Below, one piece after another: positions 698 through 9,605 of a stretch of DNA of 64,000 bases. The position numbers and the translations under genes are program-made. Each line of letters starts with the position of its first letter. The first letter of the stretch is position 1. The notes beneath the pieces are model-generated. The model saw nothing but the letters and a program-made list of their open reading frames with translations, made no database searches and had not been told where the DNA came from. Source of the stretch: a virus (taxonomy: Duplodnaviria; Heunggongvirae; Uroviricota; Caudoviricetes); the IMG/VR virus record IMGVR_UViG_2623620505_000001, one strand, 5' to 3'.

Positions 698-2617
698 ATG
701 GAACAGTTCAATATCAATAAAGGGGTGACGATCAAGCCTGGGCTTGACGTGCTTCCCCCGCCAGTGACTGATGATGAATATCGCGCATTAATGGCCGGTG
801 AGGACCGCTATCTGATGACGGAATCCAACACCCTGGAGGAAATCGAGGCTACGTTCTTCTATGACACGCCGATCCACTGGTGTGCTACGGATTTACTGGA
901 GGCGATTAGTTCTACTCGTTTGCAGTTACACCGGACCATGCAGGCATTTGTCCGGGCATTGAACCAGAAGCTGAATGGTACCGGAATCTCTGCGGGGAGT
1001 GATAAAACGGGGGATGTGGCCCAGAGCGGCGCGCGCGCGATCGGCGGTGCTGAAATTGGCCGGGCACGTAACGTTAACGGGCTGCCGGTCCTGCCAGCCA
1101 TTATTCCGCTCAGTGATGGTCAGACTATCAGCATTCTGTTTCATAGCCCGACAGCGGAAAACCGGATCACCAATAGCGATACGCTGGTTGCTTTCCAGTT
1201 CTTACTGAATAAAAAAGACGTTACTCACACCGTTGCTCCGATGAGTGGACGTGATATGACGCTGGCGCAGGTCACCATGAAACTTGCCAACCTTGCAGAG
1301 AAAAACTCGGCAAAATTTCAGCGTGCGCAGAAGAAGAAAAAAGCCCTTGTTGATGAAATAACCCAACTACAGGCTGACAGTGACCAGAAAGAGGATGCCA
1401 TGAGCGACCTCGTGGATCAGGTGGCAGCGGTAGAAGGGCAGAAGGTAGATCTGGAGCAGAAAATTAACGCTGTTGCATCGGAAGCGGATTCTCTTTATGA
1501 AGAGAATGAGCGTTTGCAGACGGAGATTGATCAGCTCAATCGCACTGGTGGGCGCGATACCATTGCTCCTGCGGGGATGACTGGTGGACACTCTCGCGCG
1601 ATGACGGATCGCCTTGCCAGTATCAAAAATCGTATGCATATGAACGGGGAAGTGACGCTCAGTAATGGTGCATCAATGAAGCAATTCATTGAGGACGGCG
1701 AAGGGTATATCCAGTTAACCGATTCGGATGGCAGCGTGTACATGATCAAGGCTAAATCCATACAGGGTGTGGACATGGCAGATGCGATCGGCAAGCTGTT
1801 TAAAGCCTATAAAGCGGGTAATGTATCGGAATACCTGGTCCAACCAGAAGAACATAAACCGGAAAACGTCGAACCTGAACCAGCGGAGGATACCGGTAGC
1901 TCTTCGCCTGAACCAGAAGTCTCTGTAGGTGCATATCGATATGCCCTGCAAATGCGTCCGGCGGCCCCTGGCGCAATACCTGAAGGTAACAAAGCAATTC
2001 TGCCGCGCCCTGATGAAGGTGACCCGTATTATGAATATGCACGCTACGGCATTGCTACTTACGATACCCCGCTTTCTGATCAGCAAATGAGTGAGTACGA
2101 CCTGAAGTTATTGCCTCGCGAGGATTCTTTCGACTTCCTGGCGAAGACACTTACTAATGGTCCGTTTGGCAAATATGCACAAAAAGCTCTGGAGCTGGCC
2201 ACCAGCTCACCAGACGAGTTCCGCGTAATGCTGAAAACTCAGTTTCAAAAAACTTTCCCCAATATTGCGTTTCCGGGGGGCGCTGGCACCGAGAAAATGG
2301 TGCAGAGCATGATCAATGCATTGCAGGCCGAAGTCGGTGAGATTACTCAGCCAGAACCTGCCCCGGCACAGCCTGATGAAACGGTTAGCGAAGCAGATGC
2401 AGAGGCTAATAAAGCCATTGAATATCTCAATAACGTGATGGATATGCAAAGCACTGACATGGCGGAGATCCGTAACGCCCGGGGTAATGTCCGGGAAGCG
2501 ATTGCAGCCCTTCAGGCTGCCGGGCGTTTTGAGGAAAACGAAGAGCTGGTTAATGGCGCTGCTCGCCACTTGGCTGATCTGCTGGTAGCAATCCAGAAAG
2601 CGGGGGTAGCGGCATGA
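698..2617 (+). CDS. darA: DarA-like internal head / antirestriction protein
   Basis: 639-aa ORF; size and operon position match P1 DarA; internal coiled coil; coupled to flanking ORFs. Confidence 0.7.
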   Translation: MEQFNINKGVTIKPGLDVLPPPVTDDEYRALMAGEDRYLMTESNTLEEIEATFFYDTPIHWCATDLLEAISSTRLQLHRTMQAFVRALNQKLNGTGISAGSDKTGDVAQSGARAIGGAEIGRARNVNGLPVLPAIIPLSDGQTISILFHSPTAENRITNSDTLVAFQFLLNKKDVTHTVAPMSGRDMTLAQVTMKLANLAEKNSAKFQRAQKKKKALVDEITQLQADSDQKEDAMSDLVDQVAAVEGQKVDLEQKINAVASEADSLYEENERLQTEIDQLNRTGGRDTIAPAGMTGGHSRAMTDRLASIKNRMHMNGEVTLSNGASMKQFIEDGEGYIQLTDSDGSVYMIKAKSIQGVDMADAIGKLFKAYKAGNVSEYLVQPEEHKPENVEPEPAEDTGSSSPEPEVSVGAYRYALQMRPAAPGAIPEGNKAILPRPDEGDPYYEYARYGIATYDTPLSDQQMSEYDLKLLPREDSFDFLAKTLTNGPFGKYAQKALELATSSPDEFRVMLKTQFQKTFPNIAFPGGAGTEKMVQSMINALQAEVGEITQPEPAPAQPDETVSEADAEANKAIEYLNNVMDMQSTDMAEIRNARGNVREAIAALQAAGRFEENEELVNGAARHLADLLVAIQKAGVAA

Positions 2618-2979
2618 CACTATCAGCTATTGAGTTAATGGATCTCAGCGATAAGTTGGATGCTTTGATGTCCAAAGCGGCTACCGCGAGTGGCATGGAG
2701 TTGCTGGATATCAGCGATGAAATTGACCAGATCATGCAACAGATGGGGTACGGTGTGTCCGGTGGCAGTAGTGGCGAGGAAAAACAACCTTCGGTACATG
2801 ATGGTGTGCCAAAACTGGTTGCTGATTTCCTGGCTGATAAATTCGTCGATCAGAGCACCGATGCATTTATCGGTACCTTGCAGGATTTGAGTCAATATGT
2901 TGGCACATACATCGACCTGGACCAGGTTAAACAGCACACGGCGGCATGGATAGCCGCCAACATTAAAGAGGCAGCATAA
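2614..2979 (+). CDS. small protein downstream of darA (DdrA-like)
   Basis: 121-aa ORF; ATGA stop/start overlap with the darA-like ORF; synteny only. Confidence 0.5.
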   Translation: MTLSAIELMDLSDKLDALMSKAATASGMELLDISDEIDQIMQQMGYGVSGGSSGEEKQPSVHDGVPKLVADFLADKFVDQSTDAFIGTLQDLSQYVGTYIDLDQVKQHTAAWIAANIKEAA

Positions 2980-2991
2980 GGCGTAACAGGG

Positions 2992-5979
2992 ATGAGCTTA
3001 AGCGATCAGGTGGTAATGGCCACCAGCATAGAAACGCTGATCGAGCTGCTAAAGAACCTGCCCGGTTATGGGCGGGTTTCGTATGTGGTGACAGCGAAGG
3101 GAGACGAGGTAAAAACAGCGTTTGATATCGTCGATGCCTCAGCTCTTTTGGTATCCAATACTCTGGATGGGAAAATTAATCCTGACTATCCCCAGGAACT
3201 TCAGCCGCGCGACCGGACCCGCGCATCCAGCCTTCTTCAGGTTAACCAGATATCCAAAGATTTGCGGCCTGCTCAGCTTACTGATTCCGGTTTATCCAGC
3301 CATGGTGCGCCGATAATTGGTGAGGACAATGCCGTTGAGTCAGGTAATGGACGGACCATGGGGATCATCAAAGCCTATCAGGACGGCAATGCGGATCGGT
3401 ATCGTGAGTACCTGATTGAACATGCGACCGAATTCGGCATACCTCCTGAAAAGGTTGAATCAATGACGGCTCCGGTACTGGTGCGCCGCCGGTTAACTAA
3501 GGTTGACCGCGTTCAGTTTGCCAAGGACTCAAATATTTCTGATCTTCAGGAAATGGCAGCCAGTGAAAAAGCTTTTGTTGATGCCGACAGCATAACACCG
3601 GCGATGATGGCGCTTTTTAACCCGTCAGAAAGCGGAGATCTGCTTAGCCGCAGTAATGACGCGTTTATTCGCGGATTTATGACGCAAGTTGGTGCCACAC
3701 AGGCGGCTGGCCTTGTAATGGAAGATGGGCGACCAACGCGGCAACTTGTTGACCGTATACAAAACGCGATCTTTGCCAAGGCATATAAGGATGCGCGCCT
3801 GGTAAGGATGGTTGCAGAAGAACCTGATCCGGATATGCGTAATGTTCTGACGGCGCTTAATGCGGCAGCCAATGATTTTGTCCAGATGCAGGCTTTATCA
3901 GGAGAAGCGCACAAGCAGGCTGTGACAACTATTGTTGATGGCATTGAGACAGCGGATAGCCTCGATAAAAAGGCGCTGGCGGCATTGAAAGATGCGGTAG
4001 ACCTGGTAAGGCAATCGAAGGAGTCAGGCCAGCATATTACCGATGTTATTGCTCAGGGGGATATGTTCAGCGAAACGGCCCCGGAAGTGAAAGCACTCGC
4101 GTTGTTCATCGTCGCGAATAACCGTAGCGCGAAGCGTATGGCCACCGCCTTTAAGTTGATGGCTCAACGTATCAATGATGAGTTACAGCACCAGGGCCAG
4201 GCGCTGGGGGATATGTTTGGCGGTGGTGATGTGTCGTTACAGGATATCCTTCGCCAGGTGTCTCAGGAACTGGAAAACGAAGGCATGCAAGGGATATCCG
4301 GCGGTCTTTTCGAGTCCGTTTCCGGCGGTAGTTACAATGGTGTTGCTCCATATACCAGTTTGCTATTACATCGGGCATCCGGCATCAAAGACATTATTCA
4401 TCTGATCAGGCTGCTTTCCCGTACAGATCCCCAGGATGAACAGCTTGTACAAGTGCTTGCGCATTTTGTTCGAATGCCTGTTGCCGACGTGAAAAAATGG
4501 TGCCGATTATTCGGTATCAGCAATTCGTTACTTCGCGGCTTGTTAAATCACGCATCCTCCCTTGGGCGCGATGGCTTTGACGAGATAGCGCAGGCGATAA
4601 AAAACGGAGATATGCCACCAGCTATTGACTGGTTTTCCATTCGCCCAACCAGGGTGAAAGCATTCCTTAGCGCGGCGCATTCGGCATCACCATTGGCAGA
4701 AATGGTTCAGAGGTTGTCGCTCATATTCACAGACCATACCGCGTTGGGTGATCTGACTCTGGACGAGATGAAAGAAGCCTCCATTCAGTGGGCCGATCAA
4801 CAAAATGAGGTTAACTCTGACTTCTTGCCAGCATTCAGGAAGGCCGTTAGTAAAGCTGATGATGCCCGTGGAATTCTGAGGGCATTTAAGGCATTGCAAA
4901 GTCAGGTTAATAAACATGTCGGTGATATCGATGGGGTAACGGCGGAAGGCAGGGATATCCTTAAAGAGCACGGCATAACGCCAGAGTTTATTGATGAGAT
5001 CAGGACTGATATGCAGCGTGAGGTCGTATCGTCCCTGCAAATCGTAGCCAGAGCGTTGGCGGATGCTAATCCGAAGAGTGCGGCCATTGTTAACCGTGTT
5101 ATTGGTGATATTGAAGCATCGGAGGGCATGGGGGCGCTGAAACTCTTCCTTTCGCGAGCGTTTAATCCTAACGGCAATATTCTCCCCGGCATTATTGGTG
5201 AGGCTAAAAAGTATGTCAGCGAAGAAGAACTTGAGCATCTTGACCAACTACTTAAGCGATTCTCATATAACCCGCAGACACGCTGGCAAATGAATCAGCA
5301 AAGTATGGGTTCGGTCCACGAGAAAGTGTTATCTGCCATGAACAGTGCGATCGCCAACTCATCCGTATCTGAAGAAAAAGCTCTTGAGTGGGCCGACTCT
5401 TTTATCACGGAAGAAGTGGAAGAAGCCCGCGCTGGACAGAATGGTGGGATAGACCTGCGCAAGGAACTTGCTGATATTTATCGCCTGACCGGCGGTAAAA
5501 TTTCGACCTTATCAAAGGTGGTTCACCACCAGGGAAGGGCATATGCAAATATTAATGGTGTTGTTGCTGTCAATTTGAACGATGAAAATGCAAGTGCACT
5601 GTGGCACGAGCTGGGTCATCATCTTGAGTACAGTAACCCTGGTTTGTTAGAGAAAGCCCGGTCATTCCTGAAGGCCAATGTTGAAGGGGATAAGCCATCT
5701 TTCGTTAATATCGGTGGGCGTGGCAAGCCTGAATGGTGCTTCAGATCTCGATTGAGTAATATTTATATGGCGAAGGTATACCCGCCAGCCTCAGTAAGTA
5801 ACACCGGGAAAATTCGGCAGAAATCACCGACTATTTCCAAAACGTCAGCAACGGAAGTATTCTCTATGGCTCTTCAGTTGTATCATGACAAAGAGGCCGC
5901 TGCCGCATCACTGATGAATGGTGACGGATTGCTGGAACTGTTATTAGGTGTGGCAAAGGAGCTAAATAATGCAGATTAA
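2992..5979 (+). CDS. large Dar-operon protein (DdrB-like) with HExxH zincin-like motif
   Basis: 995-aa ORF; motif WHELGHHLEY near the C-terminus; synteny with the P1 dar operon. Confidence 0.55.
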   Translation: MSLSDQVVMATSIETLIELLKNLPGYGRVSYVVTAKGDEVKTAFDIVDASALLVSNTLDGKINPDYPQELQPRDRTRASSLLQVNQISKDLRPAQLTDSGLSSHGAPIIGEDNAVESGNGRTMGIIKAYQDGNADRYREYLIEHATEFGIPPEKVESMTAPVLVRRRLTKVDRVQFAKDSNISDLQEMAASEKAFVDADSITPAMMALFNPSESGDLLSRSNDAFIRGFMTQVGATQAAGLVMEDGRPTRQLVDRIQNAIFAKAYKDARLVRMVAEEPDPDMRNVLTALNAAANDFVQMQALSGEAHKQAVTTIVDGIETADSLDKKALAALKDAVDLVRQSKESGQHITDVIAQGDMFSETAPEVKALALFIVANNRSAKRMATAFKLMAQRINDELQHQGQALGDMFGGGDVSLQDILRQVSQELENEGMQGISGGLFESVSGGSYNGVAPYTSLLLHRASGIKDIIHLIRLLSRTDPQDEQLVQVLAHFVRMPVADVKKWCRLFGISNSLLRGLLNHASSLGRDGFDEIAQAIKNGDMPPAIDWFSIRPTRVKAFLSAAHSASPLAEMVQRLSLIFTDHTALGDLTLDEMKEASIQWADQQNEVNSDFLPAFRKAVSKADDARGILRAFKALQSQVNKHVGDIDGVTAEGRDILKEHGITPEFIDEIRTDMQREVVSSLQIVARALADANPKSAAIVNRVIGDIEASEGMGALKLFLSRAFNPNGNILPGIIGEAKKYVSEEELEHLDQLLKRFSYNPQTRWQMNQQSMGSVHEKVLSAMNSAIANSSVSEEKALEWADSFITEEVEEARAGQNGGIDLRKELADIYRLTGGKISTLSKVVHHQGRAYANINGVVAVNLNDENASALWHELGHHLEYSNPGLLEKARSFLKANVEGDKPSFVNIGGRGKPEWCFRSRLSNIYMAKVYPPASVSNTGKIRQKSPTISKTSATEVFSMALQLYHDKEAAAASLMNGDGLLELLLGVAKELNNAD

Positions 5980-6280
5980 AATCGCAGCGCCATTAGGCGG
6001 AGATGCCATTATCGAATTTGATGATAATGAAGAAGTTTCCGGGCGTTTAAGCATTATCTCCGGTGACATTACCGAGGACATGATCGCTGAAGCCATAGCT
6101 GGGGCAAATCCCAATAGCTATATGGGATTCGTTAACACCCTTGATGCTCCCGCAAGTGATGTTCTCCGAACGCTGCATCTTTACGCTGGCTGGTTTGTTG
6201 ATTGGCCAGCAGTAGATGGTGGCGATGAGGACGACGACGACGATGATTTTGGTGATCATGTAGACCAGATCGTATATTGA
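5969..6280 (+). CDS. small acidic protein with poly-Asp C-terminal tail
   Basis: 103-aa ORF overlapping the end of the previous gene; C-terminus DGGDEDDDDDDFGD; followed by a terminator. Confidence 0.5.
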   Translation: MQIKIAAPLGGDAIIEFDDNEEVSGRLSIISGDITEDMIAEAIAGANPNSYMGFVNTLDAPASDVLRTLHLYAGWFVDWPAVDGGDEDDDDDDFGDHVDQIVY

Positions 6281-6282
6281 AG

Positions 6283-6308
6283 AAATCCCGCCAATTGGCG
6301 GGATTTTT
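6283..6308 (+). terminator. rho-independent terminator between convergent operons
   Basis: aaatcccgcc-aatt-ggcgggattt hairpin followed by a T-run. Confidence 0.75.
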
Positions 6309-6311
6309 ACC

Positions 6312-7406
6312 TCACGAGAAACTCTTTTCTGATGTCAGCCAACAGTGCTCGTGCATATCTCTTGGTGGTTTTTCGACAAATGCCTCTTCAGCCACATCCT
6401 GCCAGGGGATTTGTTTAGCCCATTCAGTTATAGCGTTATGGTTTGCCGAGAATAACGGTATTGTATAGGCCTTCAGCCAGTCTAATGTGCTGGAGTTGTG
6501 TTTTTGAGCGTGATGTTTCGCATGGTGTTTGGCGATCACGATCGTAGGCACTACCCATTTACTACCGTCAGTCATTGTGAAGTGCATATTACGGGGAACA
6601 GATGACTTTTCCATCAACTCCCGAATCCCTGGGAATTTCCCCAAGATCAATCGGCGATATTCATCGCTATTGCGCCCACCAAACTCTTTGGCTTTGAATT
6701 CAAGATATGCTTCAGAAACGAGAGGTGAATCCTCTGTGTTTAGAGTTATCGCCGTGAAAAAACCAGCAGGATTGTTTTTACTATGGGCCAACCGGTGATG
6801 CGAATCATAAAAGTACCCTTTCTCGCGTTCCGATGGTTTCGACAGCAACAGCAGGCGCGAGTCATAATTGGTTAAATTGCCAGTTATCACTGCATGAGCG
6901 CGATCGCTGATTTCCGCCGAGTTAATAACGATGAAAAGATCGTGCGGTCCAGTAAAACCAGCCAGAGACTCTTCGTTATTCAGACAATAGGTTATATAGA
7001 CGCATCCCCATGTTTCACTGATATGCACCAACCCTTTGTCAGGGTGTATTCTGAAATAATTGCCAAGAAAAGTGTGTTTTTGGGTAACTCGCTCCCAATA
7101 ACGGAACATATAGTCAATTATTGTTTTTCGACAATCGTTAATCGCAGGAGAAACAACCACTGTACGGGAACACGAATACAGTATTGTTTGCAGGATGCTA
7201 ATCACTGCCACAATAGAGGTTTCCCCAATACCATGTGGTGTGGTGGCAGTGATTTTGGCTCCGGTGTTCTTTATCGCGTTAATAATTTTTGCTTGATGAG
7301 GTGTTAACTCAATATCAAGCAACTCTTTTGCTGCCAGTTCCCAATTGTCTTTATACCGTTCTATCAGTGCTAACCAGGCAGATTCATTCTGTATACGATT
7401 AATCAC
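6312..7406 (-). CDS. PacB-like protein: paralog of the terminase large subunit ATPase domain, lacking the C-terminal part
   Basis: 364 aa; clear similarity to PacB at 26514..27998 (GYFYDSHHRLA vs [11 protein letters not shown]; TAITLNTEDSPLVS vs [14 protein letters not shown]; Walker-like GIGETS vs GTGKSD). Confidence 0.7.
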   Translation of the reverse strand: MINRIQNESAWLALIERYKDNWELAAKELLDIELTPHQAKIINAIKNTGAKITATTPHGIGETSIVAVISILQTILYSCSRTVVVSPAINDCRKTIIDYMFRYWERVTQKHTFLGNYFRIHPDKGLVHISETWGCVYITYCLNNEESLAGFTGPHDLFIVINSAEISDRAHAVITGNLTNYDSRLLLLSKPSEREKGYFYDSHHRLAHSKNNPAGFFTAITLNTEDSPLVSEAYLEFKAKEFGGRNSDEYRRLILGKFPGIRELMEKSSVPRNMHFTMTDGSKWVVPTIVIAKHHAKHHAQKHNSSTLDWLKAYTIPLFSANHNAITEWAKQIPWQDVAEEAFVEKPPRDMHEHCWLTSEKSFS

Positions 7407-8307
7407 TTTCCACCTCTTCCGTGGTGTTTTCTTGCAGTTCTGTTAATGCAGCACGACATAGGTTCCGGGCATTGGCTATAGCCACACTTTTGACTTCATC
7501 CGTCATCGTGCAGGTAATGTACTGATCGAGTTCTTCAGCGCGGATGATGCTTTTGCCAATCAGAAACTGTATTTGCCATAGCAGATCGGCATCCATAATC
7601 AGAATTTCTGCCGGGCCTTCAGGGCCAGCCGGGAAGGAAACATAAGACTGTTTGCCCAGGCCGACAACTCGACAACTTGCTTCAAGAATTGCGCGCTTGA
7701 GGTCTGACTTTATAACGGAAACAGGTTGATTTTCACCAGTGATTACGCCGTTGACATGGAAAGGCATGTAGCTTGAAATACGCTCTACTTTCCACACGCC
7801 AGCAAGCGATCCTTCATGCAGCACAATGGGGGTAACCGCGAGTTTCATCTCACCATATAACTGCTGGCAGATAGCTGGATTGCTGAATACATCTAAAGGC
7901 TCACATTCAAACAGCGGCGCAATCTGCATGAGGTCCATCATGGTCATCCCTGGGGTACGAGCAGTAATGAATTTGCGCATACCAGTATCCATTGCGCTCC
8001 AGATTGCTACACCATGCTTTTTGCTCACTTCTTCAGTAAAGCCAAGGTGGCACATGATGGTTTTTTCGATAGCCAGATCAGAGATAGAAACCTTTTCGCC
8101 AGGTACTCCATCATTATTGATGGTCACTTCGACACTCTGGCCATTACGTAGGCGGTATTGAATGGTTTTAGTATTTTGTGCTGTCATAGTCTTTTCTCTG
8201 CTTAAAAACTGATGTATTGCGTCTTCAGGTGGGTTAGGAATGTTTTCCCACCAGCGAAAGCAATATCTCGTGGTGTTCTGTTCGTTAAAAACGCGTGCCA
8301 TTGCCAA
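7399..8307 (-). CDS. hypothetical protein
   Basis: 302-aa ORF, same strand and overlapping start of the PacB-like gene. Confidence 0.5.
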   Translation of the reverse strand: MAMARVFNEQNTTRYCFRWWENIPNPPEDAIHQFLSREKTMTAQNTKTIQYRLRNGQSVEVTINNDGVPGEKVSISDLAIEKTIMCHLGFTEEVSKKHGVAIWSAMDTGMRKFITARTPGMTMMDLMQIAPLFECEPLDVFSNPAICQQLYGEMKLAVTPIVLHEGSLAGVWKVERISSYMPFHVNGVITGENQPVSVIKSDLKRAILEASCRVVGLGKQSYVSFPAGPEGPAEILIMDADLLWQIQFLIGKSIIRAEELDQYITCTMTDEVKSVAIANARNLCRAALTELQENTTEEVESD

Positions 8308-8389
8308 CTTTGGCGTTTTTTAGCGAGTTCGTGCTTTTGTTGGCGTTTGGACCACCGCTTTTCTTTCAGTCGTTTTTTACTCATAAACT

Positions 8390-8878
8390 CTAAAACGGAA
8401 TATCGTCTTCAAAGTCCATTGGAGGTTCGTTATTGGCGCTGCTCTGAGGTTTGCCGCCACCGCTGTATTGCTGGTGGTTTTGAGGTTGGTTTGACTGCCC
8501 CCAGCCATTTGAGGACTGTGAATCGTCGCGGCGAGTGCCGATCATTTGCATGGTGCCGCCCTGGCTGACGATAATTTCCGTCGTGTAACGTTCTACACCG
8601 GCGTCATCAGTCCACTTACGGGTTTTAAGTTTCCCTTCGATGTAGAGCTGAGAACCTTTTCGTAAATACTCACTCGCAATTTCAGCAAGTTTTCCGAACA
8701 AAACGACTTTATGCCATTCTGTTTGCTCTTTCTGTTGGCCCGTTTGCTTATCGCGCCATGATTCATTCGTTGCGATGCTGAGTCTTCCGACTGCGCCGCC
8801 ATTTGGTATATACCTGATCTCCGGGTCTTGCCCCAGGGTACCAATCAGGATGACTTTGTTTACACCGCGTTGTGCCAC
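8390..8878 (-). CDS. ssb: single-stranded DNA-binding protein
   Basis: 162 aa; OB-fold N-terminus similar to E. coli SSB; Gly/Gln-rich linker; acidic tip MDFEDDIPF. Confidence 0.95.
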
Positions 8879-8897
8879 TTTTCTTACCTAATAAAAT

Positions 8898-8914
8898 AAA
8901 TTAATTAGAGCAAT
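8898..8914 (-). promoter_or_regulatory. C1 repressor operator (16/17 match to consensus) upstream of ssb
   Basis: aaattaattagagcaat, reverse complement of ATTGCTCTAATAAATTT with one mismatch. Confidence 0.7.
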
Positions 8915-9047
8915 AATGTATATCTTTGAAACGTGGCTAACAAGTGATTTGCATTATCCTGTGCCTTCTAAAGGGATCGAGTCAGTCGGTATTGGCTGTG
9001 AATGAGTGTTTGTCCTGGAGCGTAAAAAATTCGCTTATGAGGTCTTT

Positions 9048-9605
9048 ATGAAGGGAAAAACAGCCGCAGGAGGCGGTGCAATTTGCGCTATCGCGGTGAT
9101 GATTACCATCGTGATGGGTAATGGCAATGTGCGAACCAACCAGGCGGGGCTTGAGCTGATTGGTAACGCTGAAGGTTGCCGACGTGATCCATACATGTGC
9201 CCGGCGGGGGTATGGACTGACGGGATCGGTAATACACACGGGGTAACGCCGGGTGTGCGAAAAACCGACCAGCAAATCGCCGCTGATTGGGAAAAGAATA
9301 TCCTGATCGCTGAACGCTGTATTAATCAGCACTTCCGGGGCAAAGACATGCCCGATAATGCCTTCAGTGCAATGACAAGCGCGGCATTCAATATGGGATG
9401 CAATAGCTTACGGACCTACTACAGCAAAGCGCGAGGCATGCGAGTAGAAACGTCCATCCACAAGTGGGCGCAGAAAGGGGAATGGGTGAATATGTGTAAC
9501 CATCTCCCTGATTTCGTGAACAGTAACGGCGTGCCCCTGCGAGGTTTAAAGATTCGCCGTGAAAAAGAACGCCAGCTTTGCCTGACGGGGCTTGTCAATG
9601 AATAA
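9048..9605 (+). CDS. lyz: SAR endolysin (T4 e-type lysozyme with N-terminal signal-arrest-release segment)
   Basis: MKGKTAAGGGAICAIAVMITIVMG... followed by catalytic region NAEGCRRDPYMCPAGVWTDGIGNTHGV; matches P1 Lyz as I recall it. Confidence 0.92.
   Translation: MKGKTAAGGGAICAIAVMITIVMGNGNVRTNQAGLELIGNAEGCRRDPYMCPAGVWTDGIGNTHGVTPGVRKTDQQIAADWEKNILIAERCINQHFRGKDMPDNAFSAMTSAAFNMGCNSLRTYYSKARGMRVETSIHKWAQKGEWVNMCNHLPDFVNSNGVPLRGLKIRREKERQLCLTGLVNE

Follow-up and report, generated by a model that had tools for sequence, protein, structure and literature searches.

A probable non-catalytic paralogue of the packaging ATPase PacB, joined to a separate conserved domain, in P1-like phages

Why should a P1-like phage encode a second protein resembling its packaging ATPase, at a distance from the genes for the pacase itself? 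This question is raised by p364, a gene in a 64,000-nucleotide stretch of IMG/VR record IMGVR_UViG_2623620505_000001 (hereafter the window), which carries homologues of ddrB, hxr, ssb, lyz, pro, c1, pacB, pacA, ban, and dmt and was identified as a P1-like phage (Punavirus). Our analysis indicates that p364 is very probably a maintained, non-catalytic paralogue of PacB, the large subunit of the terminase. The segments on which the comparison with PacB is based are as follows, with lengths in amino acids (aa) and genes taken from the list of open reading frames (ORFs).

6312-7406, minus strand: p364 coding sequence, encoding the 364-aa PacB paralogue (ORF list; GTG start at 7406, stop codon at 6312-6314)
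6621-7406, minus strand: N-terminal domain of p364 (residues 1-262), predicted terminase large-subunit ATPase fold, homologous to PacB residues 1 to about 265
6714-6818, minus strand: segment from GYFYDSHHRLA to TAITLNTEDSPLVS (residues 197-231), the best conserved between the paralogue clade and PacB
26514-27998, minus strand: pacB, the resident functional terminase large subunit (494 aa), with intact GHGTGKS and IIDEAS and the nuclease half
27998-29191, minus strand: pacA, encoding the second pacase subunit and immediately preceding pacB in the operon (ORF list; tblastn identity to PacA of related phages)

The initial annotation had described p364 as a terminase-ATPase-like gene far from the pac operon, aligned by eye with the N-terminal part of PacB. 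Both observations held: p364 lies about 19 kb from pacAB, and its BLASTP alignment with the PacB of the window contained 93 identities in 266 positions (35%; 58% positives; E 1e-53), covering residues 11-272 of p364 and 11-274 of PacB. When a profile of three diverged p364-type proteins was aligned using hhalign with a profile of 29 PacB homologues (down to 48% identity), the match extended over 284 columns with a probability of 100% and an E value of 6.6e-60. Since both alignments span the whole domain, the similarity is domain-wide and is not a short low-complexity patch. The three motifs quoted initially were all located in p364, namely GYFYDSHHRLA at residues 197-207 and TAITLNTEDSPLVS at residues 218-231, each with its counterpart in PacB, and the P-loop counterpart, which is GIGETS in p364 and GTGKSD in PacB. 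The motifs common to both proteins were GYFYD[ST]HH, TAITLN.E.SPLV, GGR...Y, and G.FP. In a cross-clade conservation scan, 35% of the positions in residues 197-231 were shared and invariant with PacB, the highest value of all segments.

The p364 structure was modelled with AlphaFold2 from an alignment of p364-type proteins, truncated PacB homologues, and homologues of a small C-terminal domain described below, and the model had a mean predicted local distance difference test (pLDDT) score of 93.2 and a predicted template modelling (pTM) score of 0.88. When the model was compared with the PDB using Foldseek, the top 30 matches were all terminase large subunits, led by Sf6 gp2, the P74-26 TerL ATPase domain, D6E TerL, and T4 gp17 (E 5e-09 to about 1e-05, probability 1.0), and the terminase chain of the Avs3 complex 8DGC was also matched (E 1.2e-4). 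Because only terminase large subunits occupied these 30 places, the N-terminal 262 or so residues are predicted to form a terminase-type ATPase domain. The leading structures (Sf6 gp2, 4IFE; P74-26 TerL, 4ZNL; D6E TerL, 5OEB; T4 gp17, 2O0J) shared approximately 260-315 aligned columns with the model (E 5e-09 to 1e-06), whereas their identity to p364 was 11-16%; those proteins are working motors whose Walker motifs are intact and which, when full length, also have a nuclease domain.

At the family level, p364 matched the PHROG 5902 profile over its full length (residues 1-364, E 1.2e-186). The same profile matched PacB (E 2.2e-151), and its last 85 or so positions matched free-standing proteins of the small-domain type; PHROG 5902 is thus a mixture of true PacB terminases and dead paralogues. 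Scans of p364, PacB, IsaA, and Hxr against Pfam, NCBIfam, and PADLOC gave no match, as did PDB sequence searches with p364, IsaA, and the small-domain profile, and a BFVD search returned uncharacterised homologues only.

Does this domain still have the residues required of an ATPase? The corresponding sites in p364 are the following.

7215-7244, minus strand: degenerate Walker A motif (P-loop), TTPHGIGETS, residues 55-64, with Glu62 at the position of PacB Lys62
6915-6938, minus strand: degenerate Walker B motif, LFIVINSA, residues 157-164, with Ile161 and Asn162 at the positions of PacB Asp162 and Glu163

Both motifs were thus degenerate, and the Walker-like motif of the initial annotation is present in outline but has Glu in place of the Walker A Lys. 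In PacB, the Walker B sequence equivalent to the LFIVINSA of p364 is LYIIDEAS (residues 158-165), and Lys62, Asp162, and Glu163 were invariant across the 29 aligned homologues. The Walker A sequence GHGxGKS was found in 116 of the 120 PacB homologues scanned, and every PacB Walker B recovered by a pattern search was DE[AS]S. The P-loop of p364 has neither Lys nor Arg, and its Walker B pair, IN, is not acidic; the Gln of the TWQQ/TPHQ motif, the P-loop glycines, and the S-x-P of the C-motif are retained. Among five subclades of the paralogue, the Walker A region was GIGETS, GIGRPQ, GIGQKT, GIGHKS, or GVGTKT, three of them carrying a Lys one position later (GIGxK[ST]), and the position of the Walker B Asp was occupied by I, V, T, M, or L, the aspartate being missing in all five.

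By the usual criteria, p364 would therefore be classed as a pseudo-ATPase, and ATPase activity is very unlikely; from its sequence, neither ATP hydrolysis nor cleavage or translocation of DNA would be predicted. The DNA-translocation accessory suggested in the initial annotation is likewise unlikely if a motor is meant, because neither Walker motif has its catalytic residues. PacB and p364 are homologous over the whole ATPase half, at 35% identity and with the same predicted fold, whereas p364 has lost these catalytic residues and the nuclease half and carries an unrelated C-terminal domain. Furthermore, PacB is a core protein encoded in the pac operon (pacA-pacB, 26514-29191), whereas p364 is optional and belongs, apparently, to an early operon headed by ssb. 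p364 thus falls short of a functional terminase large subunit on four counts, having no Walker A Lys, no Walker B Asp-Glu, no nuclease domain, and no place in the pac operon, and it should not be annotated as one. It is labelled "terminase large subunit" in MH422554.1 and MH445380.1 and hypothetical in RefSeq.

What, then, occupies the place of the nuclease?

6315-6599, minus strand: C-terminal small domain of p364 (residues 270-364), a beta-hairpin plus helices with the His-rich sequence KHHAKHHAQKH, belonging to a family of phage proteins of about 100 aa

The initial annotation was correct in that the C-terminal nuclease region is absent, residues 270-364 having no profile similarity to PacB (hhalign probability 0.85% against any part of it). 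The word "truncated", however, did not fit, because the nuclease is replaced by a distinct conserved domain of about 95 aa that also occurs free-standing. On the same hhalign value, a degraded nuclease domain was rejected; a full-length MAFFT alignment spreads the C-terminal domain over the PacB nuclease, and that portion of the alignment is spurious.

A phmmer search with residues 265-364 found 154 cluster representatives, mostly free-standing proteins of about 100 aa, and a profile built from 50 members retrieved 1052 proteins. Some members are fused behind Cys-rich or coiled-coil N-termini, the latter in some cases long. None of the best 120 of these 1052 proteins had a Pfam domain, and the few that were named in their source were called "hypothetical protein"; a Pfam scan of ten family members also gave no match. 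The domain is contained in the C-terminal end of PHROG 17928 (p364 match, E 1.6e-13). In a 72-sequence alignment including p364, the domain positions W20, A28, A32, P53, F55, W65, A66, W71, and W92 were invariant, and the p364 clade was distinguished by the His-rich helix, KHHA.HHA.KH, and by QIP replacing NNM. The domain was confidently modelled in the AlphaFold2 structure. Residues 270-364 or so therefore match the small family of PHROG 17928 and keep its near-invariant Trp, Ala, and Phe positions, whereas the members of that family are mostly free-standing early genes of other phages and prophages and the p364 copy is fused to a dead terminase domain. The free-standing genes adjoin RecT/YqaJ or, in lambdoid-like prophages, occupy the early region bounded by the repressor gene and int. 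No free-standing copy was detected in the E. coli genomes by blastn, and tblastn of the C-terminal domain against phage records yielded five records only.

Three loci bear on the relation between the two domains. In a contig of GCA_024867085.4 (P0139, 8001-10384), the order is reversed, the small domain being followed by a PacB-like domain with GSGTGTTT, and the gene is interrupted by a transposon after 246 aa. In the P1-like contig L032 (6583-9062), a 362-aa dead paralogue directly follows ban, the gene for a DnaB-like helicase, without IsaA. In Cronobacter phage JK004 (MZ188976.1, 2369-4306), whose helicase is 85% identical, ban is followed by a 96-aa ORF and then by a free-standing small-domain gene at the equivalent place. 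From the reverse fusion and the shared locus after ban, we infer a functional link between the two domains. The gene directly after ban (53053-54423) in the window is a 332-aa PHROG 2518 gene, which was rejected as a further paralogue for lack of similarity. As to the surroundings of P0139, a 548-aa ORF of the transposon resembles by eye a Tn3-family transposase, and an AbiH gene and a RecA-dependent nuclease gene lie nearby.

Is p364 maintained, or is it debris? The 90%-identity cluster that holds the p364 orthologues comprises 851 member sequences. The gene was found in 119 PLSDB plasmids (118 at 80% coverage or more) from Escherichia, Salmonella, Klebsiella, and Shigella, and in 99 of 5426 complete E. 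coli genomes, where there were 100 matches, all essentially full length and 98 of them plasmid-borne. The orthologues in these plasmids and genomes were 96-99% identical, and the plasmid prophage NZ_CP039843.1 has a 100% identical copy. Since pacB was detectable in 598 of the same E. coli genomes, about one in six E. coli P1-like elements carry p364. The DNA identity of pacB in these genomes was bimodal (364 records at 95% or more, 227 at 80-90%), which suggests that at least two PacB lineages exist among E. coli P1-like elements.

Ratios of non-synonymous to synonymous divergence (dN/dS) were calculated by the Nei-Gojobori method. Against the copy on an E. albertii plasmid, p364 had a dN/dS of 0.27 (dS 0.17), with 0.18 in the C-terminal domain; against a 91%-identical viral contig, the values were 0.28 and 0.12, respectively. 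The dN/dS of ssb was 0.13 for comparison. In ON470617.2 (vB_EcoM-813R1, 1933-3003 of the locus), the p364 orthologue was frameshifted near its 3' end, with altered C-terminal residues, and its C-terminal dN/dS was about 1, owing either to a sequencing error or to a real disruption of the small domain.

IMG/VR contained at least five subclades of the paralogue, 91-99%, about 52%, about 50%, about 48%, and 37% identical to p364. They were similar in length and all had two domains, the N-terminal extensions of some being probably artefacts of ORF calling. In a neighbour-joining tree of the ATPase domain, in which long-branch effects are possible, the paralogues formed a monophyletic group, placed as sister to all the PacB proteins of P1-like phages. 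Wherever a contig or genome with this clade was long enough to judge, it also carried a PacB-type terminase, and the set of species-representative genomes contained one further full-length carrier only. In a phage whose PacB is 88% identical to that of the window, the paralogue was 37% identical and located at a different locus. The GC content of the p364 gene was 43.8%, against 48.6% for the window. The dN/dS of about 0.27 and the recurrence of the same losses in all five subclades argue for a maintained pseudoenzyme and not debris. Judged from these comparisons, p364 is an ancient paralogue of the PacB ATPase domain under purifying selection, and the loss of its catalytic residues is old.

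Subsequently, the locus of p364 is considered. Its neighbours are the following.

7399-8307, minus strand: isaA, a 302-aa ORF encoding an IsaA homologue 94% identical to P1 IsaA; probable start ATG at 8178 (Met44)
8390-8878, minus strand: ssb, first gene of the presumed early operon ssb-isaA-p364 (ORF list)
5969-6280, plus strand: hxr, the convergent neighbour that bounds the variable slot (ORF list and P1 comparison)

The initial annotation had placed p364 next to ssb; in fact, isaA (7399-8178 or 8307) intervenes. The real start of isaA is probably the ATG at 8178, because the PHROG 2326 match of the ORF begins at residue 44 and because, in Ro157c2YLVW, a Tad2-like gene stands between isaA and the 49 codons that extend the ORF upstream. 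The GTG start of p364 overlaps the isaA stop by 8 nt (GTGATTAA), with GAGGTG just upstream, and this arrangement suggests translational coupling of the two genes. In four of the five subclades, the gene immediately preceding the paralogue encodes an IsaA homologue. The minus strand from ssb to p364 showed no terminator-like site, and the P1 annotation places a C1-controlled operator, Ossb, and the promoters P1ssb and P2ssb upstream of ssb. Hence, an early ssb-isaA-p364 operon is likely. For hxr, a putative repressor gene, comparison with the E. albertii plasmid copy gave a dN/dS of about 1 (5.5 synonymous and 19.5 non-synonymous differences, which are small numbers), suggesting relaxed or diversifying selection.

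Reference P1 (NC_005856.1) matched the window up to hxr, and the match resumed at window position 7383, which is 16 bp beyond the 3' end of isaA (stop at 7399). Reference P1 lacks p364 entirely, so that the comparison with P1 suggested in the initial annotation yields no counterpart of the gene; the same hxr-isaA slot holds IS1 and isaB (1990-3496 of the locus). P1 IsaB (201 aa) was ruled out as a p364 remnant, being without similarity to p364 or PacB; it is also unrelated to IsaA and has no Pfam match. The slot corresponds to a published variable region of P1-like phage-plasmids (PMC9603915; PMC6906374), and the same region was non-essential in P1 by CRISPR interference (PMC10695390). The contents of the two sites flanking isaA are as follows.

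Window: ssb-isaA, nothing (spacer of about 210 bp); isaA-hxr, p364
Reference P1: ssb-isaA, nothing; isaA-hxr, IS1 and isaB
SJ46: ssb-isaA, a Tad2-like (PF11195) gene; isaA-hxr, nothing
Ro157c2YLVW: ssb-isaA, a Tad2-like gene; isaA-hxr, a 95-aa ORF
Tad2-like genes (PF11195, E about 1e-22): SJ46 1500-2345, Ro157c2YLVW 2417-3094, and L022 6779-7219, each directly upstream of isaA (of an IsaA-like gene in L022)

The ssb-isaA operon seems from these arrangements to be an anti-defence cargo site, and the anti-restriction operon dar/ddr, whose Dar proteins enter virions, is adjacent to the p364 slot. The spacer of the window between ssb and isaA (8179-8389) looks like an empty cargo slot. In the subclade of about 52% identity, represented by contig L022, the pair of IsaA-like gene and paralogue occupies another place, some 4.4 kb downstream of pacB. 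Its operon (2922-9291) encodes a Cre-like tyrosine recombinase, two small ORFs of PHROG 1968 and PHROG 6669, a dUTPase, the Tad2-like protein, the IsaA-like protein, the paralogue, and a 73-aa ORF. If, like cre, this operon is active in lysogens, the L022 paralogue may be made in the prophage state. The L022 operon is downstream not only of pacB but also of a 345-aa gene on the minus strand.

What could a maintained but catalytically dead terminase domain be used for? Few phage proteins are as conserved as terminase large subunits, which constitute the pattern sensed by bacterial Avs receptors. We tentatively propose, as a possibility and short of a probability, that p364 is a non-catalytic terminase mimic used in conflict between phage and host or between phages. 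The protein would act by binding and not by catalysis. Its dead ATPase domain would be a targeting module that goes where the N-terminal half of PacB goes, the candidate partners being PacA, the PacB ring, DNA, or a host receptor that recognises terminases. The small C-terminal domain would be the active part; it is read as such because it also occurs free-standing and in the reverse fusion. Used in this manner, p364 could blunt a terminase-sensing host system or interfere with the packaging machinery of a competing P1-like element. Conflict is favoured over housekeeping because the gene is patchy in distribution, sits in a cargo slot, has Tad2-like operon mates in three settings, adjoins dar/ddr, and does not co-diverge with the resident PacB. 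The decoy mentioned in the initial annotation is a live reading. A more elaborate form, in which the dead ATPase domain baits an Avs-type receptor or the packaging proteins of a rival and the small domain, possibly with IsaA, neutralises the captured partner, is rather doubtful. Ksap2 of phage Bas60 is likewise a non-terminase phage protein, with a weak terminase-ATPase-like fold, and it binds and activates KpAvs2 (PMC11564622); since Ksap2 engages an Avs2 receptor, terminase-like proteins that are not terminases can meet terminase sensors (PMC11564622).

Several points weigh against a mimic used in conflict. Given the P-loop backbone and the Gln that are kept, p364 may still bind nucleotide without hydrolysing it. 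In the work on Avs3 and terminase, the receptor reportedly touches both active sites (ATPase and nuclease) as well as the bound ATP. The lack of these features in p364 speaks against a simple Avs decoy. The residues shared with PacB, located in the N-terminal helices and at 176-232, would suit binding to PacA or PacB at least as well. No PADLOC match was obtained for p364 or IsaA, nor any match to an anti-defence family, and the association with Tad2-like genes is weak as evidence. Furthermore, the operon is C1-repressed in P1; p364 would thus be silent in lysogens, which limits readings based on superinfection exclusion.

The main rival is a self-directed regulator of the pacase, which we consider unlikely though worth serious attention. 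As an early-made protein, p364 would bind PacA or join PacB as a dead or poison subunit and thereby delay or tune pac cleavage and packaging until concatemers are available. The exclusive occurrence of the paralogue clade with a PacB-type terminase (short fragments aside) favours this explanation, as do the loss of the active site from a domain whose N-terminal helices and residues 176-232 are best conserved with PacB, the C1-controlled, early ssb promoter of P1, and the translational coupling inside an operon of replication genes. There are also precedents. Several phages have a large subunit whose N-terminus binds the small one, and dead paralogues are frequent members of ring ATPases, as with the clamp-loader subunits delta and delta'. 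The latter resemble p364 in concept, the ATPase fold being kept, the catalytic residues lost, and the function one of binding and assembly, whereas they are core ring subunits and p364 is an optional protein. On the other side, p364 is optional, being carried by roughly one E. coli P1-like element in six, and packaging is normal in reference P1, which is without it. Nor has the paralogue co-diverged with the resident terminase, a 37%-identical paralogue occurring beside an 88%-identical PacB at a different locus, and it resides in a cargo slot adjoining anti-defence genes.

An accessory function in replication or recombination ranks third and is improbable. Here, the dead fold would bind DNA, such as concatemers or pac-cut ends, and together with the small domain would protect it or hand it over, for example against RecBCD. 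This explanation draws on the neighbouring genes (ssb in the window, a DnaB-like helicase gene, ban, in both L032 and JK004, and a dUTPase gene in the L022 type), on the free-standing small-domain genes beside RecT/YqaJ or in lambdoid-like early regions, and on the fusion of some small domains to long coiled-coil N-termini. However, no match to a DNA-binding or nuclease-inhibitor family was found, the distribution is patchy, and the neighbours are no more than the genes of early operons that receive cargo.

The remaining two explanations are poorly supported. That p364 is a functionless, decaying remnant of a duplicated or captured pacB is very improbable and largely refuted. The loss of the catalytic residues and the nuclease, the lower GC content, the frameshifted copy in ON470617.2, and the absence of the gene from reference P1 would be in keeping with decay, but the dN/dS is 0.27-0.28 and lower still in the C-terminal domain, the frame is full length in 118 of 119 plasmids and in 100 of 100 E. 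coli genome matches, the two-domain architecture persists in all five subclades, the most distant of which is 37% identical, the model has high confidence and good packing, and the coupling to isaA is kept. A working second terminase or translocase ATPase with an unusual active site is the least credible of all, since the terminase fold, the retained Gln, glycine P-loop, and S-x-P, the Lys one position later in three subclades, and the label in MH422554 and MH445380 are outweighed by a GIGETS without Lys or Arg, the lack of an acidic Walker B pair (the Asp position being hydrophobic or Thr in every subclade), the missing nuclease domain, and the distance from the small-subunit gene.

In the literature on dead or decoy terminase paralogues, on the function of isaA and isaB, and on anti-defence hotspots of P1, no description of the p364 gene was found. 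What is new here is a natural pseudoenzyme of a packaging ATPase with a new domain partner, the anatomy of which is solid and the function inferred. For annotation, this means that automated pipelines may report two terminases in carriers of p364, of which only one is plausibly active, and since reference P1 is without the gene, P1 is no model for it. Identification of the partner of p364 could reveal how phages regulate, protect, or sabotage packaging. If the proposed mimic is real, it would represent a new class of counter-defence or inter-phage interference protein, and it would provide the first function for a family of more than 1000 small early phage proteins.

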